From assembly GCA_028716965.1 (NCBI GenBank), contig JAQUOV010000008.1, positions 16,766 through 80,765 on the forward strand: a stretch of DNA of 64,000 nt, read 5' to 3'. Numbering within the stretch: position 1 is the first letter of the stretch; the number at the start of each line of letters is the position of its first letter. The stretch comes from Candidatus Omnitrophota bacterium. Its GTDB lineage: Bacteria; Omnitrophota; Gorgyraeia; Gygaellales; Profunditerraquicolaceae. Below are positions 1-64,000 of the stretch, in pieces. The notes below the pieces were generated by a model, which searched no databases, was not told the DNA's origin, and worked only from the letters and a program-made list of their open reading frames with translations. A program made the translations under genes and the position numbers.

Positions 1-3000
1 GCTCATAGATATTTTCCGCCACAACCCCTCTTTCAGTAAAATAGGCGTTATACCAGGCCCCGTTATTCTTGGGCAGGCGTAATAACGCCCTGGTTAAATG
101 TTCGGCTGTTTCAATATCTCCCACAGACAGGGCCGCCTGGATAGCCTGAGCCTGGTTGTAAATCCAGGTCACTTTGAATGATGGGTCGCGTTCAGGGAGA
201 TTAGAAAAAGATTGTATAAGCCCGTTAGGACTAATTTGCGTTTTTAACCACAGATAAGCTTTATTTAGATTATCTTTACTCAGATGGGGGCGGGAACCAG
301 CTTTGGAAGGAAATAGCGTCTCTTGCAGCAATTTGCCCGGAGAAAAATATACCAAGACAAGAAACTGTAAGAATTCTCTTCGGTTTATTGGGCTGGAGGT
401 AAACAGCCTTGGAGCCGTCGACCCTTGCTTAACCAAGGTTATTTGCATCTCCGGCGGCGAGGCAGCGGGCGGATCTAAAATAAAACTGATTTCATAATAG
501 GCCTTCGGCTGAGCCAAAGAGCCGGTTATATCTTGAGGCGCATTGCCGCCCCATTGGAGTCTGATGGGCATCGAGAATTGCCTGCATAATTTGAAATAAA
601 GCCCGCAGCATGATTGGGGCGCGGCTGTATGGAGAATTATCTTTTTTGTGCCGGTAGGAGCGCTATGCGCGAAATCAAATAACTCCCTGAATAACTCAAC
701 CTCCAGGGCGGCCTTTTGTTCAGAGGAAGCCATAATCGCCATATCAAAAATGTAAAGGTTCCTGTCGAAAATCCGACCAAATATCAAATATCCCGCAACC
801 TCTTCCCCGTTAAGCCGTCCGGATCCGACAATGGTATGGTTGTTTTTATCCGCCAAAACCCTTCCGTCCCCCTGAAAAGCAGTGTAATAAAATATATTCG
901 CGCTATTTTGATTAATGCCCCTTATGATCCCGAACGCTCCCCCATCACCATCTCCAGGCCTTAATATCACAACATTGAAACCGTCCCCATCTTTTTGCAT
1001 TAATTTATCCCTGCTCAAAGGCGACGCGCCAGCTCTAAAGCTTAGCTCAAAATGATCAAACAACTCACCCATTCTTTCAGGTATATTTGACCATTTTACA
1101 AATGCTAACCTGATACCGGATCTCTCTTCCAGTTCGGCCTTATTTATCCTAATGCCATAAATATGCTGCCAAAAATCCTCTATAGACCCGCCCTTGAAGC
1201 CTCTCGGCAAGCTGATTTTTCTGTCAAATCGCAAGTATGCATTTATTATCCTTCTTTCAAATCTCAGGAAATCCCTCCTGCCTCCCTCAAAGAAATACTT
1301 TTTGACATCCGCCACGTCATATACAATCAGGCCGGCAAGCGGAACTGCGATATAAGCAAATCCCCTGCAAGCGGCTTCATCTATATCCTTTGAGCTTGGC
1401 AAGAGTATACCCGGATGCGTATGAAGCATAACCTCACCCTTCATATCATATCTGCCTACCGTATGAATAATCCTGCCTTTCTTATGTGTCTTTTCCCCCA
1501 CACCGCAAATCCAGGGGCTCCCGCTCTTATATACTAAAATTATTTCTCTCAGAGCGCCGCCAAATAAAATAAGGCTGCTTTTTGTGATGCGCTCATCCAA
1601 AAGAATGAATTCCCTTCCCTCGTGCAATTTTGCCGTGTTTTCTTCTCTTAAATACGGCGCTAATGAGCAAAGTAATATACTACGCATATTCTCATAAGTT
1701 TCATCTCCCCCTGCTAAAGACAAACTGCTGCTAGCCGATATTTTCCCGTAGATTTTAGGAGCGAATATCCGCACTCCTCTAAGATCCACCCCCCCATATG
1801 TATTACCTTTAATTATTACAGAGGATTCAGGCTCAACTTTAAATCCCTGGGCCCGCATTCTGGCCGCCATTCTTAACAAATCAGCGCTTATGGAATCCTC
1901 CCAAAGCGTTCCTCCTACTCCTATGTAAACAATCCCGCATCTCTCCAATAACAACCTTACTAATTCCTGGCCATAACCCCTCCCTCGCTCTCCCAGCACA
2001 GAAATATACGGCAACCCTACTCCCTCTTTATAATTCTTGATAATGCTTGCCCGCGCAGCCTCTTCCAGGGGCCCCATTAATGAAACCTGGCCGTCCGGGA
2101 ACACTTTTAACTTAAGCTCCCCTGTATTCTTATACTCCTTTGCCCCTTTTTCTATTTGCCTCCTGATGCTATTGGCTTGCTGAACAATAAATTGCCTCCA
2201 AAATTTTTCAGCAATGCTTGTTTTTCTCTGCGCAAGCGGGGAAGCACAGGGTCCGCGTTTATCTATCTGCCCGATTAATTTTGACAACTCCCTTCCGACA
2301 GCCCCTCCTTTTGGACGGCTGAAATCATAAGGTTTGCCCGCTGATAGTAATACAATATTCCAAATCATTTCATCTCGTAAGCCCTGCACCCCTCCGGTTA
2401 GTTTATAAATAAAATGATGCACTATATCAACAGCGGCCCACAACGAAAGACCCCACTGGACACTGCTGTTTAATCGCAGAGCTTCAGGCAGTTTAACTTC
2501 AGCAATATTTAAACCCATAAGCAACAATAAAGCAGCACCTAAGAATATATTAAAAATGCGCAGATGAATGAATGCCCTGATAAAGTTTTCTTTGGCCTGC
2601 GGGGATAAATCCCGGTAACGGAATATTCTAATGAGCCAGAATGAGGATGCGGTTACCCCATAACTGATAATGGCCGCAACCGCGGGAATAAGAGCTGATT
2701 GCCTGATAAAAGAATATGGCAGAAGGACCAACCCAAACAATGCCCAGGCACAGGGGCTTATAAGGGCAAATACAGCTCTATAAGATAATATATTCGGCAT
2801 AATTGCTTTACCTGCGGTCTTAAGGCCGCTTTTGTCTAAATTTATGGCGGATGAGGAGTTCTGATTTAAGCCTCTGATATTAAACTTCTTTCTTGTTGCC
2901 TCTGCCGCTTCCGGATCCAACTGTTTCGCTTTCTTGAAATCATCTTGCGCCTTGTTCTTATCTTTTGATAAATAATGGGCAACCGCCCTTAAACCGTATA

Positions 3001-6000
3001 GTTCGCTTAATATTACGGTAAATTGCTTTTCCGCCAGCCGTTTTGTTTGCGGAGTGTTTCCCGACACTCGCCCTACTATTTTTGTAATCAGATCCGCAGC
3101 CTGAGAAAAATCATTTAACTTTATTAAGCAATAGGCAATGTGGTAATTTATCAACAGGGTCTCTTTCATCTCGGGCTCATATTTTAACGCTAAGCGTAAA
3201 TCTTCAGCTGCGTCATGATAATACGCTACTTTATTCTCAAGTTCAGCTAACTCCAATAGTATGCCGGCTTTTTGCAAATAAAGAACGGGGTCCCTGAAAT
3301 TATTTTCATGGGATTTATTAAAATATTTTACCGCCAAATGATAATAGGGTATCCTGCCGGAGATATCCCGCGTTTTTCTTAATAGATTGCGGAACAAAGT
3401 GCATTGTTGAGCCGTTATATAATTAATCCAGCCCAGCAGGAAATATCCTCCTCCATATGCGGGGTCAATTTCTATGGCCTTGCGCGCTAAAATTTCAGCT
3501 TTTTCAAGGTATTTATCCCCCTGGCTATATAATCCGGCAATACCCGTATAAGAGCAAAGAGGGGCCAAATATACCTCTTCCCCTGCCCCTAAGATATTAT
3601 TGATTATTGATTGCGCTCTTTCCCATGCCAGCAGCGCTTGTGTAAAATTTCCTTTAGAATATAAAACATGCCCACTCCAATAATCGGCCCTGACAGCCCT
3701 CCATGTGATAAAAGCCTTTTCCGGAGTCATCGCGGGCAGCAGGCTGATTGCCCTGGCAATCTCCGCAGGTGCCTTCATTTTTATCAGCAGCAATTCAGAA
3801 CAGGCATTATTCGTTTCTATCCTTGATGATCCGGGGATGTTATTCCTAGGTGACGCTAAATTATTCTTACTTGGAAAATATGCATAAGCGGGATGAACAT
3901 AAGATAATACGGAAATTATTAGGCAGGCAACCAAAGCCCATAACGGCGGAGCGCGTATGGCTTGGGTACGGTCAGATATCCCGCCGGCAGCAAAATCATT
4001 TGTTTGCAGATCTAGCTTTTCATTGCTATCCGCCTTATTGAACGCTTCCTTCCTTGAAAAATATACCTTACGGAAAGGTTTCTTGTGAGGCCTGTCATAT
4101 TGATAGATAGGGCTGGCACTCGCTTTATTTTTACCCCACCGGATCAAATTATACCCATGGTCAAAGAACTTAAGACAGCCTGCCTCCGTTCTACTGTCAA
4201 AATAATTAACAGGGTCCTCTAATTTAAATCCGTGGTCTGCCCACCACTCCAGCAGGAATACAGGAAAACGAATTTTTATTATGTCAGGATATTCATCGCA
4301 TGGATCGGTCATCATGGGGAGTCCAAACTTTATCCTTATAAATTCAGAGAATGACTTTTTAAACTCCAGGAGTCTTCCGTCTATCATTATCTTGCTAAAC
4401 AGAAAACCGAGGCGCCGCTCTATTCCCGTAAGGTTAAGCCAACCCTGACGTTCAGAAAATTCCGGGCGTAAATCCAGCTCAACCTCTGAACCAGAATGAT
4501 CCATGGAAATAATTTGTTTTTCTTCTGTTCCGCTGGGGCTTCTAACGCTTCGGAGCAAATACTTTGATTCTTTAAGGCGCTCGAGCATGGATTTTATGCC
4601 AAGGGAATACTCCTCCCTGATCCTTGCCTCCACCGCCTCAAGATCAACTTCATCGGTTTGAACTGTAAAAATTATTTTGTGGCGCATGCAATACAGAAAG
4701 ATGAAACGCAAGGCAGTTATTCCATTGCCCATTCTCTTGTAATCCGGAAAAATGCGGAATGACTGCACGCGGATTAGGGGATTTTCCACCCAATTATCCC
4801 CCGGTGTCCAATAACCATAGGAAAATATTAATCCGCAATAGCCTACTTTATATTCCGCGCCGGATTTACCCATATAAATATCATGGTCGCAGCTATTCCC
4901 GCCGCTTTTCTTAAGCACTAATATCGTAGGCAGGCCGTTCTTTTCATTCCTGAGCGCTATGTTTCTGCTGAAGGCGCCTAGAAAATCTTTTTCTGAATAC
5001 TTTGCCTCCAGCGCGGAGCTGCTGGTATCCTCAACGCAGAATTTTATTAAAATTACAGGCACCAGCATCATTGTATAGATCGCGTCAGATGTAACGGGAA
5101 GATCAACGACGATATTAGGGATGCCGTTTTGGCTGGCAGAATTCACCATTGCCTCTTGAGATCCCGTGAGAGTTCCGTTGCCGACAAAAATAATCAATTT
5201 ATCGGGAGAGCCCGCTTCCAGGCGAAACAACGAACGCAATTTATCTTGCATGGCGGAAGGTATTCTGCTGATTTCCTCGGATAGCGATGTTATATAATCA
5301 TTATAAAATTCAACATACCAGTCCGTAAAACCGGTTACGGATTCATCAAGAGGGGCAATTTCAATAAAATTGATTCCTGCTTTTTTCAGCATAAGATAAA
5401 TCTTAATGCTGAGTTCATAAGCATAATCCCTGCTTGAATCCCCGGGAACCCCTACTCCCTCATAACGGGGAGTAAACCCGTTAATCCTCTTTAGCAATTC
5501 TTCCAGCTCTTGGAGCAAAGCAGGCCTTTTGGATTCCGGATCAAAACCATTATAATTCTCAAGCAGCTCTTCTATCTTATTTACTATCTCTGTTGTATCA
5601 AACACCCGATTCGGGTTTTTGTATTTATTAAGCAGTTCTCCTAATTTATTTACCGCCGTTATTCTTTTGTAGGCCAGCGATAATCCTTGCAGAAGATCAT
5701 CTATATCCCATCCGCTTATGCCTGCGCAAAATAATGCCGCGGGGGTGAATATTGCCTGCCTGCCTTTAATGCCCTGGACCGCCGGCAAGGCGCCCAGGAA
5801 AAAGGATGCTCTCCTGCGCAGATTATCAAACCAGAGTCTCTGATGTTCGCGATGAAGCTCATGGCTTGCGCCTACATTGCTTATTATCACAATCCTGGAA
5901 GCATACATATCGCTTCCAACTTCTTTAATGAACCTGTCTCTTAAAATGGGGTAATTTGAGGGTAGCCTGTCGGAATCGGTAATTACGGTCAATATTGTTT

Positions 6001-9000
6001 TATCTAAGTTCGGGGTATTCACGGAAAGAAAACCTGTTAATTCTTTGCAAGATAGGTTATCTTCGATAAAATGGATCCGGGGGCCTGCTCTACTGTCTGC
6101 CGAGTTATAATCACGGCCGTTTAATATCCGGTGCAGCGATCTCATCCCCAATCCAGAACCATCCCTTCCCAATATCAAAACGTCTGTTATCTTGTCCTGC
6201 CCCCAAAGGCGGATTATCTTACCTGCCAGTTTCTTGGCTTCATCAACATCGTAACCGCCGTCATACCGGCATTGGGAAGCGTAGTTGAAACATCCCGATT
6301 TCTTGCTGTAGCAGCCCAAAGATGTTGCAATAAATTTCTTATAGATATTCATGAGGGCTATCCCCGCCGCATCCAGATCTTCGGCGGTCAACCTGTTTCC
6401 TCCGGGGAGGGAAAAATGAATATTGCTCATGGAAATTGTGATTGAAGATCTACGGGGCTGATTTTTACGGACAAGTGACGAGGCGGCAGGGCCTTCACTG
6501 AGATTAAATATTTTCCCGTTTTTTATTACGGTTGAGAATGATTTCAATCGTTTTGGATCATTCTCTTCCGCAAGCAGTAAAACCAAGGTTTCAATATCAT
6601 CGGCAGAATAGTTATTTTTAACCGCGCTTATCGCTATTTTCGCCTTTTTATCGCTATCTAAGATCAGTTCCGCAGCAGAAATTATTTTGACTGCTTCTGT
6701 TTCTGAGTAATTGTTTCTTCCGACAAGATCCAGGATATTGCTTAAAATCTCCCTTTGCGCGGGCGCTGCTTCTGTCTTAAGTATTATTCCCATAACTTCG
6801 GCATTGGCAAATCCGAGTTTTTCTATGGACAGCCTCATATTTTTTGCCTCAGCAATGTTGGATATGTTTTCTTGCTTTGCCAATAAGTATGCTTGCTCAA
6901 TGCCGGGCCACGATAGTTCTCGGAGATGGCAGGCAATGGCTATCAGGCTCCTTACCCCCCGGGGAATACCGTTTAACCCGGGTAGATACTCAGGTAAATC
7001 CCTTAACAATTCCCTTACGGTCTTAGGCTTACTGCTTGCTTTATGATAAAATTGTCCTAACAATTCATCCTGGGTCCACCCGACATGATCTTTTAACTCT
7101 AAGTATTTTTCCGCCACCATACGGTAAAATGAACCCTGTAAATGCGGAAAGTGCCGCAACAGATTATCTAACCCCTGCTCTCCCCTGTTGACCGCAGGGG
7201 ACTCTTCAGCCGCTCCTTTTATTTCGCTTGCCTCCGGCCGCTCTTCATCAGCTTCTCTTTGCCGAAATAGCTTGGTTTTTCTTGCAGGCGGAAATGATGG
7301 CTCAAAAGGCTGCTTATCCAATGCCACCTTTAACCCCAGTATTGCACAGTTTATCTCTTCCTGCTGCGGGACAATATAATCCTGTAATATATGCCAAATA
7401 GCGATTCCCAACGGTATTTCTTTGTTGCGATTCTCAAAATACTCGGCTTCTTTCCCGGATAAAGACTTTATTGACTTTGGCAGATTTTTAATATTTCTCA
7501 GAGAGACTGAGTTTGTCTTTAAAATTGTTTCTATCGCGCCGTCTTCGAAGTTTTCCTTACCTTTCATAACACTCTTAAGGCGGAACAATTCCGATACAAT
7601 TATCTTTTCTTCCTGCGTCTGGGCTGATTTTGTGGGAAGATGCAAGGCCTTTCCGTTCGCTCTTTGAGGATCATCTTGCGCGGACAGATTCTGCGGCTTA
7701 CGCGGCCGGCCGGCTCCACGCTTTGCCGAAAATAGCTTGTTTTCTTTTTTTAACCTGTCATGTTTTACCGCAAAGGGAGCTTCTTCCGTTTGCCTGACCC
7801 TTTGCCTTACCCTGATTTTAATTTCCGGATATCCTTCTTTTAACAAAATCTCGCTGCTTAAAGGTAAAAACTTCTTTAAAGTGGCATATGCTAAGCCCAA
7901 CTCTTCAGATAACGCGTTCATATTCCATATTTTATTTATTTCATCGGCTTTCCTTTTCAAGGCCCATCCTAAAATCCAGGCTAAACTTCCTTTTGCTTCT
8001 CTAATAGTAACGTCTGTTTCATTTTTGCCGTCCAGAGAGGAACCGCTCCGGTGAGTATCGGGGCCATCCGCTCTTTCTTCGGTTCCCGTTTTACAAATTA
8101 TCGCCAATCCACCTCCTTTTTCCCCTTTTTCTACAATAAGCGAATAGCTTAAAGGTGCAGCATGATGTATAAAGCAATCAGCTAATTTCTTAAGCTTCTT
8201 TTTGTCAAAACAGCGTTCGTGCCCCCAGCGCCTATCAGGAGAATCTTCAAAGGGGACATGAACAAGATGAAGCCATATGCCGCAACGTGCAATATTGCGT
8301 ATAATATCCGCCAAGATATAATCTTCCGCGATATGTTCGTAGATATCGTTAGCGATTACAATACCGCCTTCTTTAAATTCAATTTCTTGGGCAAAACCGT
8401 CTTCAAGCTCTAATTTTTCATCCTTAATCCTGGGAACTACATAGTTAAAGATTAAGCCGGTTCTTCCCCCCCTGTATTGTGCAACGCACCGCTCATATTC
8501 AAAAAGGCCTAATCTGTTGAACGCTTCCACATCGGGGTCAACAAGGTAAAACGTGGCAGAGATAATTATTCCTTTGCTCCTGGCCCATTTATCTAATCTG
8601 GGGGCGGCCACCGCTCCGAATAACCCTCCAGCTGCCCCAACATCGTAAATACTCACGCTGGCTTCAGAAAAAGGCGATTGTTTAATCCGGATATTTAAGT
8701 ATTTTATAATTATCTCTATCTCCTTATCGTATAGCCTGCTTCCTTTCCTGATGAAATTCCTAAAGATCCGATCATAAATAGCGGGGGAAAAGATTGACTT
8801 ATATTCCAATGTTGTCCAGAATACCGCCAGATGCGACTGCAATAAATTCATCTTTTTGTCATGAGATATCATCCTTAAACTTTCTTCCCGCTCAGCTATC
8901 CTCTTGAATAACTTAGCCAAATCTCTGATATAGTTAGTATTACATATCTTCCAGTGGTGGATTAATTTGCAGCTTTCTTGCGGTGCGGGATCGTCGTTTA

Positions 9001-51000: not shown

Positions 51001-54000
51001 TGCCCAGAATATTCATATAGATAATGGCGAATTTCAAGGCTGCCAGACGGCAGTCAAAAGCAGGAAGCATCCTTCCGGCGTTATGCATTATGCTGATGAT
51101 CCCATCCGGGGTCTCGGTCATGTATTTAATAACTCTTTCTGCCCATATTTTGTTAGGATACTGCTGGACCTCCTTAGGCGTGCGGCATTCTGAAGCAAAC
51201 TTATACGCGTAATAACGCGCCGATAAGTCCTCCAGGGCCTCCTGCAAACCTTCGGGAGTATAAGGTTCAAACAAATAGCCGTTTCCCTTCTCCCCGTGAT
51301 GAATGACGTTTAAAACCTGCTGTACCGGTCCGCCGGTATAGCTGGAAATAAGTATGGCATAAGTAAGCATATATTTCTTATCCGCCATCCCCGCTGCCTC
51401 CAGCGGAGGTATGGTGGTCTGCACCCCGGCGGTAACACCCTTGAGGACATATTCGGATACTTCGGTATTCCAGATAATATAAACAAACCTTCCGGCAAGC
51501 TCCGGGTCCTGCGCCAACTGCTTAAATTGCAATGCCCACTCCTGGCAAAGGCTGTCTTTTTCATGCGCCTTGCCGGCAAAAGCCATATCAAATGCCAACC
51601 CCCCCTCCTCCAGCGTACCGGTAACATAATATATGCCTTTCAGGCTTCCTCTTCCGGGAATAGAAAGAATAAATGTGTTATTTTTAAAATCGGCGATACG
51701 CCTGGCTTCCAACAATACCGGGTAACCCTTTCTTAATTTTACTCCCGTCAATTTTTCCAACTCGGCCTTCATGAAAGCTTCTGCCTTGCGCTTTAATCCC
51801 CAGATGATTTCTTTTTCCAGCACTGCTCCCGACTTTTGCAGCTGCTCATTCAACATCCAGTATAATGTCCATATGGAATCTTCGATGGCAAAGAATTTCT
51901 CTTTATGCGCGGGATATTCCTTTTGCATTACCCCTAAATGCTCTTTTCCTACGGTGCCTACGGCCTTAGCCTTGATGATTAAGGCTAAGAAAGGATCGTA
52001 CATCATTGAAGGAGTTCCATTGCAGTCACGCTCTTCAATGATAAATTCACCGCACTCATCCCTGTTTAAACCAAGTATTGCTTCCAGCAAATATGGGTAA
52101 TACCTGGGGAATGATTGAGGAACTGCGGTATGGGCAAATCCGATAAGGTGATTTCTCGCATTATCAAAATACGGGTCATCGCGATACTCCGGATTCTTAA
52201 ATAAATCCGGGAGCAGGGCTATTGCCGGGTACGCTTCATGCACCTGGGGCATATCTATAGACACGTTAAATTCCCTGGAGAATGCCAAAACTGCCCTGGT
52301 AAAATAGGCGGCCTGTTTAAACCGGTCCGGGTCGCGCGGCTCCGAAGGATACAAGCGGTCTGCTACTTCTTCGGTAATTTCAATTAACGGGACAAAGGCC
52401 GCTTTAGTACCGGCGCCGTCGATCTTTAAAGTAGATTTCATCAAATAGACCGTGGTGGTGATATCTTTGCCTGATAGATTAAAGGTAATTTGCCTTTCCT
52501 CAATCTTCTCCCATTTTTCAAATTCGTCTTCATAGCCGTTAATTAGAACGGAGTAGTCAAGCGGATCATTTAAATCCATGTGCGGGACCATTTGCCTGAA
52601 CTCTTTGCCTTCAACAACCTTCGCTTCCAAAGATTTGTCTATGGCCATATACTGGCCTACCCCTCTTTTATAGATGAGAAGCGGGAAATAAACATTGGCC
52701 CCGGAATAACGCAGGCCGCGTAAAAATCCCTGGATCAATACACCCAGGCCTCCGCCTAAGGCTCCCAGCAGTTTCTTCATAAGCAGGCCTGATTCAATGC
52801 TTAAAGCAAATACATTGGTTTGTTCAAGCTGGCTGAACGGTTTATAAGCCGACTTTTCCAACGATAGCTTATCCGGAAGGATCTTCTCTACCTCGTGGTA
52901 TTCCCTGCTGTCTATTACTACCCTGTGTTTACCGGCCGAATCGCAGATCACTAAATTCACTTTTATAAACCCCGGCATATTTGCCGCGCCGGCATCCCAG
53001 ATGTATCTGGTCTCCCTGTCTTTTCTATAAGCTTGTTCAGCAAGCGGAACGTCGCAATACCGGCATTCTTTTGCGGTTAAAGAATTTTCAATTCGCGATG
53101 CCCCATTACCGTTTCCGATTTCCAGCTCTACCGGCGGACGGAAATCTTCAAAATGGCGCGTATCCAGGACAATTTCGAACGGATCATACTTTGTGTAAGC
53201 GACCTTCCCCTCGCTTTCTCCCGGGTTGAATCTTCTGTCCCTTAAAGCGTGGGCAAGGACCTTATGGTTAACGATGTTGTAAGGAAGCAGCTTAAGGATG
53301 AATATTTCATTCAGGGAATTTACCGCATAGTCATATTGGCGGCTTCCTTTGGGATATGCCTGAAGCACTGTCACTATCTGGTCTATTACCCAGTTCCTTT
53401 TTTCATCCGAATCAAGCCTCAAAAACAGGTTATAAATAGTGTGGGCTACGCGCGGGTATTGATGCTCTACCAGTAATTTATAAACCGGGACTTCAGTATT
53501 GCCCAGGAACTCCGGCTGGGTGATAACCCAGGAGGCTCCCATCCGCGTTTCATCGTTGTCGCTAAACAATAACTGCTTTAAAGAATTATTGAATTGGTTT
53601 CTCGCGGATTGCGAATCCTCAAAAGCCTTATACAGTGAATATAATGCCGTCGCCCATTTGTAACCTGCCGGAGGTCTAATCGCAGAAGTGATCCGGCAGA
53701 TATTTTCTTCGTTTAAAGCCGGCAGCTGCTCTTGAGGAGCCTTGTAATCCATCCTTAAGCGATATGAATTATCGGTCAACATCCCTGTTAAGTGATAAAC
53801 AATAAATCCATTACCTCTCTCCGAAAGTGTTTGCTGCCTCTGTATTTCCGTTAAAATTGTTCGCGACTTTTTATAACTTAGCGAGTTGACCGGCTCCTTT
53901 TTCAGCGCGCTTCCCAATTGAGCAAGTACCCAAAGCTTCTTATCAGTGGACTTCAACTCAGCGTAGATATCGGAAATGATCTTGGCCGCTTTCCTGACCG

Positions 54001-57000: not shown

Positions 57001-60000
57001 CGCCGTCATATTCCAGCAGTTTTCCATCTCCGTTATCAGAAAAATTGATTATTTCCGTATCCGGCAGGCCGGCATACTTTGATAATTCTTCGCGCGGGCA
57101 GACTATCGGCCAGTCTAATTCAAGGATAACCTGTTCCGATATCTTACCTTCGGCCCTTTCCGCATTATGCGTTCTGATTATGTACTCGGTGTCCCGCAAC
57201 CCTATTGTGTAAATTCTTTCTCTTGCCTCCGGCTTTGACAGATCACGGGTATAAAGAACGGTCTTGTTCACTTTAAGTACCGGCATCGGGCCTTCCTTTG
57301 AGCCTGTCTGCCGCAGCAGCGGATTCCACTCTCCCTCCATCCATTGCACTTGTTCTTTACCGATATGGATGATTATCTTTCCGCTGGGAGTGTGTTCGAT
57401 CATAACGGTCCCCCCGCTTCCTGAATTATCATATACGGGCTCCATTGTAGGAATTCGCCTGCCCTCCCCGAAGCTGATAAAAAACTTTTTCCAGATTTTC
57501 GCGAACCTGGCCACGTTAAATTTCTGGTCAAAAACTTCTGTAGCTTTGCCTGTTCTCTCGTCAACAGGACGATAATCCTTTTGTTTTAAGACCATATCAA
57601 ACTCATGCGCCGCCTCCTTTAACCCGAGTTCTTTACAGAGATCCCTGAAAAGCTCCAGCAAAGTTGTCTTCCCGCATCCCCCTAACCCTGTGATTAAGTC
57701 AAGCGCGAAATCTTTTTGTTTCATCATATTTAGATCTTTGCCTAAAAGTTCATATATTGCCTGTTCAACCGTAGTACTTCCGATGGCCAGGGCCTTGATG
57801 TAATGCATCCAGGAATTAAACTGGGACTCAATATGCTCAACCGCGTCAAGCTCAACCGTATACGGCTCTTGCTTTCCATCACGATAGGTATCCTTAATGG
57901 TAAGCGAAGAAGAGCTGCCTGCTATATCGGATCTATAAATCATTTCCATTATTTCCAGAGGCAGGCAAGAAACACTTATATCAAAACTCTTATTATTAAA
58001 ATCGTCATCCTTGAATAACCCTGCCACAAATTCAGCGAATGCCTTATCGGAAATATACTTGAATTCCGCACCCGGTATCTCAAGTACCATAATAAGATTG
58101 CGCACCCACTCGCGGAGACTCTGATTAACGAACGGATTACCGGACAATAAAGAAATCTCCGAGAAATCATTTAAATCCGTGACTTTTCCGAAAATATCCG
58201 AATTAATAAGCGAGCCATGTTCAGGCTGAAGTAAACCAGCCCTAAGGAGAGCCCTGAGATTTCTGCCATAATTACAGGACAGTTCCGATAAGTATGATCC
58301 CAAGGCAGCTTTTTTGCTTAAGCCCGGATACAGCTCATTTAATATTTCAAAGAATAATTTCCTGTCTGGATTAAAACTTCCCTTAAAAAATACCGATAGT
58401 CTGCGGTAATCGCTGACAGGGCTCCTGATCACAGCCCCATATTCAGTTCCCTCGTGCTTAAATAAGGGTAAGATGGAGCAAGTATGCCTGGTAAGAGTCC
58501 CGTCTTTTGCCGATAGTATAGCCTCTCTATGGATAGCATCTTCTTCGTGCCGGCCCAAACCCACCGCAAGCCTGCTGCTTACCTGATGCCACCAACCCAG
58601 AAATACCCCGCGCTTACCCAGGTGCCTTTCATATACCGTAGGCGGAAAATCAGAAGAAAGATTGTGGTGCCTGTACATGGGTGTGCCGGTTTTCTTGAAT
58701 TCCAAACCAAACATCTGCCATTCAACGTCACCGTAAACTGCCATTCTGTACGGAATAGGCAATAAGATTGACCTGCCCCCGATTCCTAAAACCGGAATTG
58801 TGAAAGGCTCGCCGCTGCTGTCAATGACCCTCCTTAAACCAAATTGCTCATAAACCTCGGCGTCGGTAAGCGACCTGATGAATTCAGCAGTAGGGGCGAC
58901 TTCCTTCTTAACATAGAACGGGCCGGCAAAAAAGACAAGGGCGCCTTCCGGAGTATTTAAGAAGTCAAAAGGCAGTTTCAATCCCGCGGGCAAATCCCAC
59001 TTCTCCCCCTCTTTTATGTAAACTCCGGCTTTAAGCGGGATAAACGGCTTACCGATATGATCAAATTTCTTTTTCCCGGTCTGCCTATCAACGTTAATGC
59101 TGGCGACCGGCATTTGAGGCACAATCTCAATCATGTTCATAGTTGCCTCTAATTTAACTTCTTTTAAAACAAATAAATCCAGAGATGAGGAGGCCTTATC
59201 ATTCTTGCTGTCTCGGGAAAGCGGGCTTAACCAGAGTGAAATCCGGTTCTGTTTAAGAAGGATAAATAAAAGCGTCTTTAAGTAAGCCTGGCGAGGGCTA
59301 ATACTTTCTGTAGATATATGGAAATCAATATTGGGATAAAGGTGAGGGCCGTAATCCTCTTTCCTGTTTTCCTTATCCAGTTCTTTCAGCTCTTCTACGC
59401 TCCAGCCAAGCATCTTGGCGCGAACAACCACGGAAGCGGTAAACATAATATTGATGGCATCCTGCGACCAACCATATGGCTCTGTGGTATATAAGATAAC
59501 ACCGGTATATCTGGGGTCCTTGAGAGCGGCTTCTTTTGTTCTCCCGATGAATTCTTCCAAAACCTCTCTCACTTCAAGGTAGCTCGCTATTCTATGGAAC
59601 TCCTTCCTTGTTTTATCATTTTGGTCGAATTTATACCTGATATCTTCCCGCAAGGTACGGCCCGATTTATTCAAGAATACCGTTGTAGGCAAGCCAAAAA
59701 TCTCCGCCGGCTCCACGGTGCAATTTATAAACGGCAAGATTATTTGCAATTGCCTTCTAAGCTCATCCGGATTATTTATATATATTTGGGGGTCGATTCC
59801 ATTTAACTCCCACATCCAATATAGTAAATAAATCGCGGTGCGCACTATCCAGCCCGGATTCATCGGGCGTAGCCCTAAGAAACAGGCTATGGCAAGGTAA
59901 ACTGATTTACGATAAGAACCGCGCAGCCCGCTTATATTCACAATGGGCTTGCCGAATAAGGCTTTCACCAGCATCCTCTTTATAATGCCCGGGTCCTTCC

Positions 60001-63000
60001 ATAAAGGCATAGAGATATTGAAGGTTGTCCCTTTGCCTAATTCGCTTTCAACTCCGATCTTTCCGCAAATAAGCCTTAGGGTAGCCATTACTGAAGCAAG
60101 CCCGCCGCCAAAACTTCCCTTTTTTCCCTGTGCCGTGCTATATCCGCGGACAAATATCCTGCGAACATTCTCAGCCGAGATCCCTTTTCCATAATCCCTG
60201 ACTTGAATGGTCAACTGTCCCCGGCGATAGAATGCTTTAATAGCTATTCTTTCTGTCCGGCTATGTTCGGCTGCATTTAGCAGCAATTCTTCCAGCGATA
60301 AATTGATAACATCTTTATAGGCAAGGACATTTCTGCCCCTTAAAGAACGGGGGATTATTATGCTTATTTTAATATCCGGATAACGGGAGAGAAAAGATTC
60401 AACCTTTTTACCAATAATATCTTCAATTTTATTTTCCCAGAGAGAATACCCTGACCAGAGGATAATCTGATCTATAAGAGGGAGCATCTCTTCGGCATCC
60501 TCGGAGAAAGCCACAAAGGTATTGCGCAATAATTCCGGCAAAGCGGCAAAGGCTTCTTTATTCTGCATCAATTGCTTAATATTGACCATGGCTTCTGAAA
60601 AAAGCGGCCTTACTTTCTTCAAGATCTCGCCGACCTCTGTTTTAGATAATTTTTCCTTTTTTTTGCGAAGTTGAGTGTCGCGGACCTGCATTTCGTGCAA
60701 AGGCATGCAGGCATTAACATATGACTGGATTACCAGGACAATTTCCCGGCATTCAGGAACATCCTTCTTCAGATATCTCGTTTCCACCAAGGGAGCTAGG
60801 CCCATGCCAACGAGTTTATTTTTCAAATCATGCCAGAAGTCGCTATAAGTTTTTGCCTCCTCCTCTAATACTGAATGGAGGCTATCTCTTGTAAATCTTT
60901 CTATTACTCTACTTATCAGGGAGTTAAATCTACCGGCGAGGACACTGGCGGAAGGGCTGGTTAGAACCTTGCCTGGAGGCCCTCTGAAGGTATTAGGATC
61001 AAGGATGGACAGTGAAATATTATTTTTCAAAGGACTGCCGGCTACTATATGCAGGTTATTCTGGCGTGCCACTGCGAGGCGCCCCCTTCTGTCATAAATT
61101 ATTGCCGTTTCATAAGTAAGAGGCTGAGACAAGGATGCTGTTTCTGGCTTTTTCCCGGTTGCGGGATGAGGCCTTGATTCGGTTGAGCTATCCGGCTCAA
61201 CCCCTCTTGACCGCATGATAGTATCATACGCGTCATTTACGAGCTTCATTTGTTCATCATCGCCTGTAAACCTGTCCGGATGGTACCTCCGGGAAAGGCT
61301 TCTTTTTACTTTCTTTACCTCATCCAGGGGAGCGCCACAGGCAAGCCCTAATCTAGCGTAGGCATTCCGCTGCACTTCATTACCGGCTGCTTCTATTTTA
61401 GTTAATAAAAGTTTTAACACGTACATTCCGAAGATGGCGGCAAAAGTCCATGGGATCAAATTCAGCGCGCTGCCGGCGGGAGTATCAGATTTTAATTTAA
61501 AAGAGGCTCCTGCATACCTGGTTTTACGCCATTCGCTATAACCTCCATCAGGCAACAGATCGCGCCATAAAGATAGATGTTCACCTGAGTGAAGATATTC
61601 TTTATGAAGCGTAATCCTATCGGGCTGCAACATTATATACTCTCCATAAGACGGATATGGATAAGCCACAGACCATTCCCTGCGAAGCTTCAGGGTCCTT
61701 CCGCTGCGCCAGGCAATACGGCAAAAGACATCTACATTTCCTTCATCGATCTTAATCCCGGATATTTTTTCAATTAGGTCTTTATCTGCCAATTCCATCA
61801 ATTCCTTATTATCCCGATTAAGCACTATATGCACAAATTCAACCCTGCTCTCTCCAAATAATTTCCTGGCTAAATTATAGGCAGAGCTCATATGCCTTAT
61901 ATATCCCTGCCTCCTCGCTTCCTCATTTTTACCCAAACTCCTGTACCAGCGGCTTTCTTTATTTATATTAAATTTAACCTCAATCCCGAATTTATTATTT
62001 CTCTCTAGCTCACCGATCTTCTTTATCGCTCTTTCCCCTTGAGAACCGATTTCCCAGCCGGAAGTAAATATTATAAATTTAGAGAAATGATCCCCCTCAT
62101 TCAAAACCAGTTGCTCTATGATATCCCCGTAATTCTTTTTATAGAGCGGGTCATAATAATCTTTTAACGGGTCATTGTCAAAGAAACTAAACGGGGTAAC
62201 TGACACGATTTCCGGGTTGGCTTTGTGCCATCCGATCAATTCAATAATGTGCGGCCAGGGCATATATTTGATATCTATACCGGAGGGCTTGGCGCAAAAA
62301 GAACAATGGGTTGAGCAATTTTCAGTGGCAAGAATCTGCAGCATACGGTCATTCCTCATGGCTTCCACCAATACCCTTCTTTCTGAAAGCTTAGCCGTAA
62401 AGTATGACCCAAACCATTCAAGCGGAGGCTCTTTTAGCGCCTGTTCAAGCTCTTGCAATTCATTTAGATAAAGATCCGGGTTATCCAGATAACCCTTAAT
62501 TCTTGCGGCAACCTCCGGCAGGAGTTTCGCGCCGTAGTTATTATTAATCCAGTCGAATCTTTCCCGCGCCGTCTCCGGCACAAGGCTGGATGAGGCGGGC
62601 TGGTTAAATTTAGCTATTTCGGTATCGATATACGACACCTCAGCTTCTATATCAATAACCCGTTCGCCGATATCAATGCCTCTAATTATGTTGAGCGCGA
62701 AAAGTTTATCTTTTTGCCCTCCCAGGAACTCTTTTCTTGAAACAAGCCTCTGATGTAATTTCCAGCCTATTTCTCCAATTTGCCTGTCAAGTTCCTTGCA
62801 TTTATCATAAAGCCCAGTCTCGCCATTTTTGACGCGAATATCGCGCTTATAAAACATCTTTTTTCTTTTTGCTTCCAAAGAATCCAGCATTTCTATATAT
62901 TCCTGATAAGTTTTTACCCCAAGAAATCTGCGCAAGGCGCCAATAACAGCGACCAGCGCTCCGGATAACTTCGTCAATGCGGCAGTTAGTGAACTGTTTA

Positions 63001-64000
63001 AGCCGAAGAGAAAAATAATAGAAGAACTTGTTGAATGAGTTTCTATGGAATCAGACGCAGGAGTGCGCAATGCATATTGTATTCTCCTCCACTGCCTTTT
63101 ATCAGTCAGATCTTCCTTTAAGAACCCGGCACTGATTATGTTAGGGAGCTTATGCAGCAATTTGAAATAAAATTCAGTAGCGGGATTATTATTATTTACA
63201 TACAAAGTTATCGTAGGAATATTTCTCGGAAGTGCGTAATTAAGCAGCTCTCCGAATAGCTCTGTCCCTACCCCATATCCTTGATACTCGCGATTGACTG
63301 CCATATAATGAACATAGAGAGGGTATTCATTACGGCTGCCCAGTATCAGATAAGCGATAATTTCTTTTCTTAAGCGCCCAAATATAGCCCTATTGCCATA
63401 TTTCAACGCTTCTCTTAGGATGAGGCCGTCAACTGCCGCGCAAGGAGCATAATCGCTGTGCGGCAGGCTGTGGTTAACGCGCGATACGCCCTCAACAAGA
63501 GACTTATTTATCTTTCTTGCTTTAACTATAAATAATTCCAACTCGCTCTTAAGCGGACTGTTAGAGTAAATATTAAACCCACGGCGCTTTAGCTCTAATT
63601 TTATTGCCTCCTCGGGGATATAATACCTGTCATAAATATGGATGGGGCAGCCTATCCAATCCATTAATTGCGGCTGCATTCTTTCAAAGAAGGTCAATGT
63701 TTTATTATTCTTATAGTAGCCCCCGTGTCCCGGCTTAAAATCAAACACATCGTAAATACTTAAGTAAGGGCCTTCGCTATCTTTCCCGAAAGACAACCTG
63801 TAATTACCTAAATCTATTCCCGTGTAGAAAATCCTGGATACCGGATTAGTTTTAAAGTTATCATGCAGCCGGACAAATTGAGAATCAACAATCTCTCCTG
63901 TTTTCATGGATAACAATTTTTGCAATAATTGCGTTGGCCAATAATAGGATATTTCTTTACTCTTATATACAAATTCAAAAGCTTCGCTTAATTCAGCTAC
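1..64000 (-). CDS. Internal fragment of a giant multidomain protein. No start or stop lies in the window; at least 21,300 codons are visible, continuing beyond both window edges.
   Basis: About 20 sites from nt 1 to nt 64000 were reverse-complement translated by hand. They give stop-free, protein-like sequence in one minus-strand phase (+ triplets starting at positions ≡2 mod 3), including 540 consecutive codons over nt 1-1620. The ORF track contains no minus-strand ORF in this phase, and all listed minus ORFs are in the other two phases; this fits a frame with no stop in the window. Peptide at the high-coordinate end: SKEISYYWPTQLLQKLLSMK. Peptide at the low-coordinate end: ...DIETAEHLTRALLRLPKNNGAWYNAYFTERGVVAENIYE, continuing past nt 1. 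Confidence 0.8.
1300..1620 (-). other. JAB/MPN (JAMM)-like metalloprotease-like segment within the giant ORF
   Basis: Hand translation gives ...GRIIHTVGRYDMKGEVMLHTHPGILLPSSKDIDEAACRGF.... The HTHP...SS.D pattern resembles the JAMM HxHx7Sx2D zinc site, but the spacing is imperfect. Confidence 0.3.
1800..2260 (-). other. GNAT N-acetyltransferase domain (copy 1)
   Basis: The peptide VLGERGRGYGQEL is encoded at nt 1961-1999. It matches GNAT motif A (R/Q-x-x-G-x-G/A), the acetyl-CoA pyrophosphate-binding loop. Confidence 0.5.
2460..2830 (-). other. Hydrophobic segment, putative transmembrane helices
   Basis: Reverse-complement reading is dominated by L, I, A, F, V and W. Only nt 2798-2830 were translated carefully (...SGLKTAGKAIMPN...); the hydrophobic reading at lower coordinates is from a less careful read. 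Confidence 0.3.
2900..3700 (-). other. TPR-like repeat array (array 1)
   Basis: The peptide IAGLYSQGDKYLEKAEILAR is encoded at nt 3482-3541. The + strand shows a repeated A/Y/G/L-rich helical-repeat pattern typical of tetratricopeptide repeats across this span. Confidence 0.45.
7240..7760 (-). other. Basic low-complexity linker with an AT-hook-like GRP motif and a repeated K-x-K-L-F motif
   Basis: nt 7682-7759 encode DRLKKENKLFSAKRGAGRPRKPQNLS, with a GRPRK AT-hook-like core. nt 7241-7300 encode PSFPPARKTKLFRQREADEE. The KLF(R/S) motif recurs about 155 aa apart. Confidence 0.3.
8200..8800 (-). other. Rossmann-fold methyltransferase-like module (FkbM/class-I-like glycine-rich motif)
   Basis: nt 8582-8662 encode ASVSIYDVGAAGGLFGAVAAPRLDKWA. 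The hydrophobic-D-V-G-A-x-G-G pattern resembles SAM-binding motif I. Confidence 0.35.
18850..19500 (-). other. Class I SAM-dependent methyltransferase domain
   Basis: nt 19022-19081 encode ELDMETARIADLGCGRGDVV. This is the canonical motif I (hh-D-h-G-C-G-x-G) of class I SAM methyltransferases. Confidence 0.5.
24000..24500 (-). other. Second methyltransferase-like Rossmann motif (PrmA-like)
   Basis: nt 24243-24299 encode ILGRNEFKGKTVAVAGLGN, followed in a looser read by GVDAIFSS. Only the single motif was checked. Confidence 0.25.
26600..27150 (-). other. GNAT N-acetyltransferase domain (copy 2)
   Basis: nt 26861-26941 encode CWIHYAVAVGEKFRQKGLGPAIASELL. RQKGLGPA matches GNAT motif A. Confidence 0.5.
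30950..31300 (-). other. GHKL/HATPase_c ATP-binding domain (copy 1); no HisKA dimerisation motif recognised upstream
   Basis: Three peptides match the boxes of histidine-kinase-like ATPases. N box: HERISGIKEIFCHLIHNAIDAISEAQMNGELVEGQGRLKI (nt 31141-31260). G1 box: RVLEDSGDIVLEVEDNGCGL (nt 31082-31141). G2 box: HVLGGKGEGLFKVRGWIDK (nt 30961-31018). Confidence 0.5.
31900..32345 (-). other. HD-domain metal-dependent phosphohydrolase
   Basis: nt 32282-32341 encode FPPGSAHILAHGRAVARIVD, which is the H...H...VA start of an HD domain. A looser read downstream gives ...AALVHDLGK..., the HD dyad. I cannot tell whether this is an HD-GYP subtype. Confidence 0.45.
33200..34450 (-). other. Radical SAM domain (copy 1) with an adjacent cobalamin(B12)-binding-like segment, i.e. 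a class B radical-SAM-like module
   Basis: nt 33782-33862 encode EYNLVTSRGCVNSCNFCNFYMVGGKSH. The CxxxCxxC 4Fe-4S motif lies at nt 33812-33835. nt 34142-34201 encode NIIGISAYDRSVLELIELIK, which resembles the hh-G-I-S pattern of B12-binding domains fused to radical SAM enzymes. Confidence 0.55.
39600..40700 (-). other. TPR-like repeat array (array 2)
   Basis: nt 40082-40140 encode GICCLKLGNYAQGRRYLER. The surrounding reverse-complement reading shows repeated ...Y..A...Y...AL... helical-repeat periodicity. Confidence 0.35.
46600..47500 (-). other. Possible glycoside-hydrolase-like (TIM-barrel glycosidase) module
   Basis: nt 46981-47040 encode FEENDPAVKISGWRLDAFHM. nt 46921-46980 encode GRGSYKENSCRVHCDTALW. 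G-W-R-L-D-A loosely resembles the nucleophile region of clan GH-H glycosidases, but the His spacing does not match GH13, so the family is unassigned. Confidence 0.2.
49200..49600 (-). other. Zincin-like metallopeptidase motif (HExxH)
   Basis: nt 49322-49381 encode IYGVKVHELMHKAREYKGYP. HELMH lies at nt 49349-49363 and is similar to the HELxH of SprT/WLM-type and other zincins. Confidence 0.4.
57000..57800 (-). other. P-loop NTPase (Walker A) module, STAND/AAA-like
   Basis: nt 57602-57802 encode YIKALAIGSTTVEQAIYELLGKDLNMMKQKDFALDLITGLGGCGKTTLLELFRDLCKELGLKEAAHE. The Walker A motif GLGGCGKTT lies at nt 57662-57691. Confidence 0.5.
60000..60420 (-). other. GHKL/HATPase_c ATP-binding domain (copy 2)
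   Basis: nt 60181-60240 encode IKAFYRRGQLTIQVRDYGKG, a G1 box (D-x-G-x-G). A looser read on either side gives ...LNAAEHS... (N box) and ...GSFGGGLASV...GKIGVESELGKGTTF (G2 box). Confidence 0.45.
61240..61480 (-). other. Internal J-domain (DnaJ-like, HPD motif) preceded by a hydrophobic helix
   Basis: nt 61261-61320 encode VKKVKRSLSRRYHPDRFTG, with the HPD tripeptide flanked by basic residues as in J-domain helix II/III. nt 61437-61511 encode ...FKLKSDTPAGSALNLIPWTFAAIFGMYVLK, which is hydrophobic. Confidence 0.45.
61900..62700 (-). other. Radical SAM domain (copy 2)
   Basis: nt 62283-62339 encode QILATENCSTHCSFCAKPS. The CxxxCxxC motif lies at nt 62294-62317. Confidence 0.45.
63000..63500 (-). 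other. GNAT N-acetyltransferase domain (copy 3)
   Basis: nt 63242-63298 encode VNREYQGYGVGTELFGELL. It is GNAT motif A (Q-x-x-G-x-G). Confidence 0.45.

Follow-up and report, generated by a model that had tools for sequence, protein, structure and literature searches.

A 64-kb Omnitrophota contig segment as the interior of a giant gene, probably for a mostly cytoplasm-facing multi-enzyme protein

Giant proteins of Omnitrophota are among the longest predicted polypeptides. Whether they attack prey from outside the cell or act as cytoplasm-facing enzyme scaffolds is debated, and the locus described here raises the same question. It is a stretch of 64,000 nucleotides (assembly GCA_028716965.1, contig JAQUOV010000008.1, positions 16,766 to 80,765), the whole of which is referred to as the window. 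The window is a clean case: in a run of about 20,000 residues, all modules recognized are cofactor-dependent and of cytoplasmic type and membrane segments are almost absent, and an internal twin-arginine-like anchor and an exported-looking, glycosidase-like barrel follow. This arrangement offers testable handles on topology and on how such genes are built. The window is probably an internal piece of a giant, Archaeovorin-like multi-enzyme gene on the minus strand, and the product would be a membrane-tethered scaffold that faces mostly the cytoplasm.

The coding frame is unambiguous. Six-frame translation shows that frame 0 of the reverse complement contains no stop in 21,333 codons (1..64000). 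This open reading frame (ORF) reaches past the window on both sides, which makes the window an interior part of a gene that is larger still. Each of the other five frames has 775–1,830 stops and no open run above 186 codons. Given 3/64 stops per random codon, such a stop-free frame would arise by chance with a probability of about 10^-445. Codon-position composition is even across every 1,500-codon bin, with GC contents of approximately 0.49, 0.36 and 0.46 at positions 1, 2 and 3 (GC1, GC2, GC3) and a purine at position 1 in approximately 0.62 of codons. With 21,333 uninterrupted codons, the chain exceeds the 10,000 residues (>=10 kaa) used to recognize giant or very long proteins of Omnitrophota. 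Residues (aa) are numbered along the window, so that residue i corresponds to window bases 64000-3i+1 to 64000-3(i-1). All features described below lie on the minus strand.

An earlier note, made from the sequence alone, had read the window as one giant protein assembled, in the manner of a mosaic, from catalytic and signalling modules that are unrelated to one another. The motif strings that it listed are all present at the coordinates it gave. Since they share a single stop-free frame they belong to one gene in this assembly, and the alternative that they come from separate genes fails. The mosaic description also holds, as about 15 distinct families occur in one frame with almost no internal repetition and the highest copy number is 3 (HATPase_c). 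Self-BLAST of the 21,333-aa chain finds three weak internal similarities only. These join the first GNAT domain to a degenerate copy at aa 21045–21188, the first and second HATPase_c domains, each with about 200 aa downstream, and an unannotated domain at aa 4405–4574 to another at aa 13821–14001. No Rfam families, tRNAs or tandem repeats were found in the 64-kb window.

A frame of this length might arise from misassembly, from non-coding sequence or from a wrong genetic code. That explanation is effectively refuted. The 21,333 codons include no TAA, TAG or TGA whereas the other frames are full of stops, coding composition keeps the same signature throughout the ORF, in-frame domain matches extend from end to end of the window, and an independent metagenome-assembled genome (MAG) carries colinear blocks at 65–66% identity. 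An alternative genetic code was rejected because no recoding is needed, and misassembly as the source of the long ORF because there is no stop of any kind in frame.

Alpha-glucan metabolism of the glycogen type is, on the predicted domains, the dominant and best-conserved content of the window. Pfam and NCBIfam were scanned with 30 overlapping 1,000-aa chunks and sequences of the Protein Data Bank (PDB) with five chunks of 4,100–4,500 aa. The central processing module spans aa 5267–6789 (43634..48202). Within it, Pfam recognizes a GH77 4-alpha-glucanotransferase-like domain (aa 5485–5598, 5.5e-10), GDE_N (aa 6184–6348, 4e-18) and the amylo-alpha-1,6-glucosidase domain GDE_C (aa 6408–6779, 8e-80), the last giving the strongest signal of the window. 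Two partial NCBIfam matches would complete the set. An alpha-glucan phosphorylase-like segment (aa 4099–4219, 51344..51706; TIGR02094, 1.9e-7) sits within a block that is 65% identical by tblastn to the MAG contig L001. A glucose-6-phosphate-isomerase-like (PGI-like) segment lies far downstream (aa 19264–19455, 5636..6211; PRK14097, 2.8e-6).

Homologues of the central module are mostly ordinary proteins. A search with aa 5400–7200 (1,800 aa) gives as best match P0001, a partial 3,058-aa protein of Omnitrophota MAG GCA_054635775.1 (MHB8155328.1), at 70% identity and 100% query coverage; for the module itself identity to P0001 is 66–70%. Ten more Omnitrophota proteins of 1.05–2.1 kaa follow at 40–50% identity, and then Victivallaceae at approximately 30%. 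Wherever a source is named, the 11 best matches come from Omnitrophota or Omnitrophica. P0002–P0008 carry GH77, GDE_N and GDE_C in the same order over approximately 1,550 aa and are 44–48% identical to the window module, so this part of the giant chain has free-standing counterparts. Proteins of this set (P0002–P0009, 1.7–2.1 kaa) share the domain order, but they are encoded by ordinary-sized genes that begin and end on their own among unrelated neighbours, whereas the window module forms part of a chain that exceeds 21,333 aa. Some of the free-standing genes lie on contigs of 134–217 kb among ordinary neighbours.

The glucan set is interspersed with modules of regulatory or modifying type. 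Three ATPase domains of the HATPase_c family are recognized. The first is of histidine-kinase type (aa 1236–1333, 60002..60295; Pfam 6e-15), with BceS as the best PDB match (5e-11) and sensor kinases among the NCBIfam matches (1e-15). The second, of the same type (aa 6991–7096, 42713..43030; Pfam 1e-11), is its paralogue: aa 1225–1543 and aa 6983–7307 align at 2e-16 in self-BLAST. The third is a GHKL ATPase that resembles histidine kinases and Hsp90 (aa 10919–11021, 30938..31246; Pfam 6e-9; PDB HtpG 4e-3; NCBIfam matches). The N, G1 and G2 boxes are intact in all three on inspection. No HisKA family was found at E <= 0.01 in any chunk, no H-box is visible beside the domains, and NCBIfam kinase alignments begin downstream of the H-box position. 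As far as the sequence tells, these modules lack the HisKA/DHp part of a two-component sensor histidine kinase. The earlier note had named the first and third of these domains, and both were borne out; the copy at 42713–43030 had been missed.

Other modules of this group vary in strength. GNAT acetyltransferase no. 1 (aa 204–278, 63167..63391; motif A REYQGYGVG) matches Pfam Acetyltransf_1 at 5e-10, streptothricin acetyltransferase in the PDB at 7e-5 and NCBIfam RimI at 4e-7, and GNAT no. 2 (aa 12296–12380, 26861..27115; motif A RQKGLGPA) matches Pfam at 8e-8. A CheR-type S-adenosylmethionine (SAM) methyltransferase (aa 12826–13007, 24980..25525) is well supported (Pfam CheR 1.8e-17; PDB CheR 1e-5). 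A B12-binding domain and a radical-SAM core with CVNSCNFC occupy aa 9893–10207 (33380..34324). Here Pfam gives Radical_SAM at 2.6e-6 (33380–33850) and B12-binding at 1.6e-3, and NCBIfam gives B12-binding/radical-SAM families at 1.4e-11. Another radical-SAM core, with CSTHCSFC, is probable (aa 558–676, 61973..62329; Pfam 2e-3, below cut-off). The J-domain with its HPD motif follows a hydrophobic segment (aa 848–866 and 880–929, together 61214..61459). At 61214–61363 it scores 4e-6 with Pfam DnaJ, 27.2 against a cut-off of 27.8 bits and thus 0.6 bit under it, and matches PDB J-domains (3e-4) and NCBIfam DnaJ (3e-5). An HD phosphohydrolase is found at aa 10563–10658 (32027..32314; Pfam HD 2e-4, at cut-off), where the H...HD...HH residues are visible. 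A DUF294 nucleotidyltransferase-like domain (aa 16416–16517, 14450..14755) reaches Pfam 1.3e-4, at 22.2 against 21 bits. TPR array no. 1 (aa 7898–8015, 39956..40309) is recognized by Pfam TPR families and NCBIfam. All annotated features together cover approximately 16% of residues, and approximately 84% of the chain is without annotation.

The contig that encodes P0001 (L001) is colinear with the window in two tblastn blocks, aa 3986–4372 at 65% and aa 5267–7892 at 66% identity. Across the GH77–GDE module (aa 5267–6779) identity to P0001 is 71–84%, with proportions of non-synonymous and synonymous differences (pN and pS) of 0.126 and 0.631. The linker and second HATPase_c domain (aa 6780–7096) are approximately 40% identical (pN 0.40, pS 0.82). 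The following unannotated region (aa 7097–7892) is 57% identical with pN 0.262 against pS 0.718, and because of these values this spacer is judged to be constrained protein under purifying selection. The approximately 900 aa between the two colinear blocks are non-homologous, and L001 has Ribul_P_3_epim and Response_reg domains there. A stop and restart in L001 was considered as a real split into two genes and was rejected, since 10 Ns at L001 2515–2524 mark a scaffold gap. The partial 837-aa and partial 3,058-aa annotations of L001 probably divide one larger ORF.

Relatives also carry the modules in other arrangements. An exhaustive HMMER search with aa 20134–21333 recovers P0014, an Omnitrophota protein of 2,069 aa, whose pieces match the window at aa 4363–4646, aa 20016–20374 (59%) and aa 20586–20750. 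The homologues of the first two are approximately 600 aa apart in P0014 and approximately 15,000 aa apart in the window. Since the pieces match out of order, modules have been shuffled between relatives. The first of these pieces is one copy of the recurring unannotated domain (aa 4363–4646, 50063..50914), which is 30% identical to the second copy (aa 13821–14001, 21998..22540) at 2e-10 in self-BLAST. This domain of approximately 170–290 aa occurs once in P0014 (L005 710–1738; 29%, 3e-30), with 27–30% identity overall, and has no Pfam, NCBIfam or PDB match. It may be specific to giant proteins.

Long parts of the chain stand apart. For aa 1–2500 no homologue was found at E <= 1e-3, and for aa 9801–14800 none at E <= 1e-10 in a word-indexed search, a threshold that was too strict in hindsight. 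Both null results agree with the published statement that such long proteins are mostly sequence-unique (Nielsen and Lui 2026, bioRxiv 10.64898/2026.06.07.730766). Scans of GTDB genome contigs and JGI metagenome contigs with a 1,400-aa query and with a two-sequence alignment gave no match. The best homologues of three blocks carry Omnitrophota labels (P0001 at 70%, P0014 at 59%, and P0002–P0011), and the window contains no flanking marker genes. On these homologues the window most likely comes from an Omnitrophota bacterium.

Membrane segments are rare. At a Kyte–Doolittle threshold of >= 1.8, four segments are found in 21,333 aa (aa 848–866, 20014–20032, 20409–20427 and 20482–20500), and hydropathy scans give about 5–8 hydrophobic segments in all. 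Three of the four belong to a membrane block near the last-translated end (2501..3961), identified by Kyte–Doolittle and Pfam. It consists of a predicted transmembrane (TM) helix (peak window aa 20017–20035), TPR array no. 2 (aa 20110–20364, 2909–3673; Pfam TPR_2 4e-9) and a cluster of three TM helices (aa 20404–20500). Homologues of the block are P0014 (59%), P0015 (52%) and P0022/P0037/P0044. The three-helix cluster (2501–2791) is homologous to free-standing membrane proteins of 186–253 aa with no assigned function (P0022, P0037, P0044). The homologues of 186–194 aa have three helices and a Met start. The region of P0014 that matches this cluster has a weak Pfam match to CrtO, a membrane acyltransferase. 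P0015 (MHB8158289.1) is a partial protein under a Desulfocucumaceae label and shares 52% identity with the TM–TPR block at window 3083–4117 (aa 19962–20306). Its accession falls in the same range as that of Omnitrophota P0001 (MHB8155328.1), it carries an Aldose_epim domain absent from the window, and its contig probably belongs to that same Omnitrophota organism and was mis-binned.

The last module of the window looks exported. A twin-arginine-like signal-anchor, SSPINRREFLQFLVLVYFSPG, is predicted at aa 21203–21225 (326..394). Its NRREFLQ and approximately 12 hydrophobic residues keep their position in four homologues; in the window the signal is internal rather than N-terminal. For comparison, the Tat consensus is S/T-R-R-x-F-L-K followed by a hydrophobic stretch. 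The same motif is found at this position in P0016, P0019 and P0034; in P0035 and P0043, which are short homologues, an N-terminal signal peptide takes its place. The Pfam TAT_signal match on P0016 is 7.8e-4, below cut-off, and export by a Tat-like (twin-arginine translocation) signal-anchor is a prediction. Behind the anchor begins a domain that is cut by the window end (aa 21236–21333, 2..295) and is 45–56% identical to approximately 30 proteins. This family has no Pfam model, and its profile finds nothing significant among PDB sequences. An AlphaFold model from an 11-sequence alignment of the last domain has a predicted local distance difference test (pLDDT) score of 91.6 and a predicted template modelling (pTM) score of 0.91. 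Foldseek matches the model to GH144 and GH8 at E = 6e-5. On this model the domain is an (alpha/alpha)6 barrel, identified by fold comparison only. It is 9–15% identical to known (alpha/alpha)6 enzymes (GH8, GH15, GH76, GH144, cellobiose 2-epimerase, dextran dextrinase) and differs from them in that no Pfam or PDB sequence profile recognizes it; it is glycosidase-like by fold. In short proteins the domain occurs behind N-terminal signal peptides; in the window the export signal before it is internal.

The single ORF, the supported domains, the Omnitrophota relatives, the free-standing homologues, the constraint on unannotated sequence and the fold of the last domain are observations; from there we infer a topology, a cooperation of the modules and a physiological role. 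The chain would be a non-repetitive, end-to-end series of modules that occur elsewhere as ordinary separate proteins. An alpha-glucan or glycogen set (phosphorylase-like, GH77 4-alpha-glucanotransferase, amylo-1,6-glucosidase, PGI-like) would be combined with a regulatory and modifying set (three H-box-less HATPases, HD, two GNATs, CheR and other methyltransferases, B12-radical-SAM, J-domain, nucleotidyltransferase), with TPR scaffolds and with very long, unannotated, conserved spacers. Approximately 19,000–20,000 residues of the window would face the cytoplasm. The bulk would be cytoplasmic because the recognized modules need ATP, SAM, acetyl-CoA, Fe–S/B12 or DnaK, and the sparseness of hydrophobic segments supports the same orientation. 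ATP, SAM, acetyl-CoA, a reduced Fe–S cluster with B12, and DnaK are not available outside the cell, and glycogen-type catabolism is cytoplasmic. The suggestion in the earlier note that the protein is possibly surface-associated accordingly misfits most of the window; only the last module looks exported. Tethered to the membrane, the cytoplasmic part would serve as a scaffold on which regulators and enzymes of sugar-polymer processing are kept together. Towards the last-translated end we propose that one TM helix leads to a TPR array outside, that three further TM helices lead to a GNAT-like block on the cytoplasmic side, and that the twin-arginine-like signal-anchor comes next. Because of the parity of one plus three TM helices, the twin arginines would lie on the cytoplasmic side and the chain would continue outside as the (alpha/alpha)6-barrel, glycan-active domain. 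In this way a single polypeptide may link exported modules that attack glycans with glucan processing and regulation in the cytoplasm.

Several points weigh against this architecture. The ORF ends beyond the window, so that its total length, any N-terminal signal and any SecA-like or peptidase domains are outside view, and production and integrity of the giant chain are predicted only. Several domain calls fall under curated cut-offs. The regions aa 1–2500 (E <= 1e-3) and aa 9801–14800 (E <= 1e-10) are without homologue, and the taxonomy by homologues relies on only a few blocks. The topology comes from a crude hydropathy scan and not from a trained predictor. In particular, segment aa 848–866 is flanked on both sides by cofactor-dependent modules: if it is a genuine TM helix, the cytoplasmic assignment fails on one side of it. 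In published work, moreover, many domains of this kind are assigned to the cell exterior, and one multi-enzyme protein of 147 kaa is predicted to bear a signal peptide together with TM helices.

The opposite orientation, with most of the chain outside the cell as an extracellular coat or an effector that degrades the wall polymers of host or prey surfaces, is the published reading of the class, developed for the Velamenicoccus archaeovorus giant protein and the Archaeovorins. In the window it draws on the exported-looking (alpha/alpha)6 glycosidase-like domain behind the twin-arginine-like anchor, on TPR array no. 2, which is probably outside, and on the glucan substrates of the GH77/GDE modules. 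We consider it unlikely here. By established biochemistry the recognized modules need cofactors unavailable outside the cell, the GH77/GDE homologues in other Omnitrophota appear to be free-standing proteins of glycogen-catabolism type, and some 5–8 hydrophobic segments are few for a chain of 21,333 aa. Extracellular calls for sugar-phosphate enzymes are themselves doubted by West-Roberts et al. Slightly less probable still is a polyprotein, that is, an operon held in one frame, in which fused former genes yield separate products by proteolysis or from internal translation starts. Three modules do have free-standing homologues, one of them keeping an apparent export signal of its own inside the chain. 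An in-frame ATG (aa 21185, window 448) stands 22 codons upstream of the twin arginines, the right distance for the n-region of a Tat signal. In another Omnitrophota contig (L006) genes of 2,477 aa and >3,551 aa abut by one base beside separate phosphorylase, PilZ, HIT, kinase and regulator genes, and cleavage of giant proteins by C39/S8 peptidase domains is a possibility raised by West-Roberts et al. Yet no peptidase domain is supported in the window, and an internal start at aa 21185 is unsupported, as the sole Shine–Dalgarno-like sequence, GGAG, abuts the ATG with poor spacing. Shine–Dalgarno-like motifs precede 51 of the 1,055 in-frame start codons, a count that is uninformative without a background expectation. 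The long spacers appear to be under purifying selection although separate products would not need them, and the apparent ORF break in L001 is the 10-N scaffold gap. A related idea concerns origin rather than products: neighbouring ordinary genes would have been fused by loss of stop codons into an operon collapsed into one frame, retained export signals would have become signal-anchors threading the membrane, and the (alpha/alpha)6 domain would represent a new glycoside-hydrolase-like family. The genes in question would have encoded a glycogen-catabolic enzyme, a small protein with three TM helices, a secreted (alpha/alpha)6 glycosidase bearing a twin-arginine signal, kinases, and acyl- and methyltransferases. 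This idea is tentative and on balance doubtful. If true, the exported domain that attacks glycans would be physically coupled, within one polypeptide, to glucan processing and regulation in the cytoplasm.

Giant ORFs are widespread in Omnitrophota, and the domain repertoire of the window finds close parallels in the literature. West-Roberts et al. (2023, bioRxiv 10.1101/2023.11.21.568195) described Omnitrophota ORFs of up to 85,804 aa and defined the Archaeovorins, with the 39,678-aa giant protein of V. archaeovorus LiM as type sequence. Archaeovorins contain methyltransferases, glycosyl hydrolases, TPR, HATPase_c, Radical_SAM and sugar-phosphate isomerases, HATPase_c and Radical_SAM being among their frequent domains, and are recognized by a SecA DEAD/preprotein-binding domain that is divergent and by many TM helices (bioRxiv 10.1101/2023.11.21.568195). 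The window resembles them as a giant single ORF, most likely of Omnitrophota, with methyltransferases, glycoside hydrolases, TPR, HATPase_c, Radical_SAM and a glucose-phosphate isomerase-like segment, and in its large unannotated stretches and divergent domains. It differs in that hydrophobic segments are far sparser and in that Pfam scans detect no glycosyltransferase, NUDIX, HEAT or C39/S8 peptidase domain in the window, and no SecA match there at E <= 0.01, the rest of the ORF being unseen.

Nielsen and Lui (2026, bioRxiv 10.64898/2026.06.07.730766) reported proteins of up to 147,155 aa and named their class 1 the 'multi-enzyme metabolic cluster'. Two co-occurrence modules were described, Module 1 with methyltransferase, HATPase_c, GNAT, HAD and HD, and Module 2 with sugar metabolism and radical SAM; 46% of the long proteins were predicted to have TM helices only and were read as cytoplasm-facing (bioRxiv 10.64898/2026.06.07.730766). 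The window shares with class 1 many distinct Pfam families with none dominant (approximately 15, with a maximum of three copies and no tandem repeats), the content of both modules and the cytoplasm-facing reading. It differs in that its sugar block is catabolic (GH77, GDE, phosphorylase-like), whereas that of class 1 comprises starch synthase, GT1 and phosphoglucomutase. Neither dockerin, TSP3 nor any dominant repeat was found in the window, which sets it apart from dockerin-type or tandem-repeat scaffolds. Judged by its domains, the window fits an already described multi-enzyme class and is no new kind of system. The statement of the earlier note that such modules are not normally found together is outdated, as the combinations are published co-occurrence modules of Omnitrophota giant proteins. 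Neither West-Roberts et al. 2023 nor Nielsen and Lui 2026 mentions a debranching enzyme, twin-arginine motifs or gene fusion. What the window adds to them is therefore modest: the free-standing module counterparts, a Tat-like anchor inside the chain and an (alpha/alpha)6 family that lacks a Pfam model.

Short motifs are a poor guide in a chain of this length, in which most of them occur at chance frequency. In a shuffle test the observed and expected counts were 2 and 0.57 for HExxH, 2 and 0.79 for HPD, 1 and 0.73 for Walker A, 1 and 0.3 for HxHP, and 19 and 18.8 for GNAT-motif-A-like strings. CxxxCxxC, with 2 observed and 0.01 expected, is the sole motif beyond chance. The motif-based calls of the earlier note fared unevenly. 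Its HD domain, its J-domain and both TPR arrays are recovered by profiles, the J-domain with the help of the PDB and NCBIfam matches. Two of its three GNAT sites are confirmed (63257–63292 and 26879–26902), and the third (1961–1999) has no match even at E <= 5. The third site lies in a putative GNAT-like region (aa 20586–20750, 1751..2245) that is 34% identical to P0014 and keeps RGxGxGQxL. One proposed radical-SAM site is firm (33812–33835) and the other weak (62294–62317, 2e-3). Among three methyltransferase motifs, VAVAGLGNG finds nothing at E <= 5, and two receive weak support. DLGCGRG belongs to a probable class-I SAM methyltransferase (aa 14980–15045, 18866..19063; Pfam Methyltransf_31 1.4e-5, below cut-off; PDB BamL 9e-3). 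DVGAAGG has no Pfam match itself and opens a probable methyltransferase with an MftM-like C-terminal part (aa 18453–18613, 8162..8644), the partial NCBIfam MftM match (7.6e-7) sitting 100 aa downstream. The Walker A string GLGGCGKTT falls in a weak P-loop NTPase or kinase-like segment (aa 2072–2192, 57425..57787), where Pfam Rad17 (5e-4) and PRK (9e-4) are both below cut-offs.

The protease part of the earlier proposal was not upheld. The HExxH string at 49349–49363 matches no protease family, zincins included, even at E <= 5. The JAB/JAMM-like motif HTHPGILLPSSKD (around aa 20860, 1340..1432), a putative one, reaches Prok-JAB at E = 0.078 and 13 bits only, and its spacing is one residue short of E...HxHx7Sx2D. 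An AlphaFold model of aa 20586–20960, which covers the third GNAT and the JAB motif, has a pLDDT of 33 and is unusable. Both protease strings are short motifs of a kind expected by chance, and neither has significant profile or structure support. Conversely, the motif survey had missed the GH77/GDE block, the second HATPase_c domain, CheR, UPF0146, DUF294, the phosphorylase-like and PGI-like segments, and the (alpha/alpha)6 domain.

Two further features complete the map. A UPF0146 domain (aa 12040–12144, 27569..27883) is supported by Pfam (4e-17) and by PDB entry 2k4m (3e-5). The degenerate GNAT-like paralogue of GNAT no. 1 (aa 21045–21188, 437..868; self-BLAST 27%, 5e-5) has lost the G-x-G of motif A on sequence inspection and has no Pfam match.

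Gene neighbourhoods elsewhere in the phylum provide a last observation. In Omnitrophota GCA_015233405.1 (L006 4001–27434), separate genes for glycogen phosphorylase, PilZ, HIT, a response-regulator/histidine kinase and a response regulator lie directly upstream of the two large abutting genes. In L002 (9258–15046) a PilZ gene precedes a free-standing GH77–GDE gene. The content of neighbouring genes in L006 and L002 resembles the module content of the giant chain.

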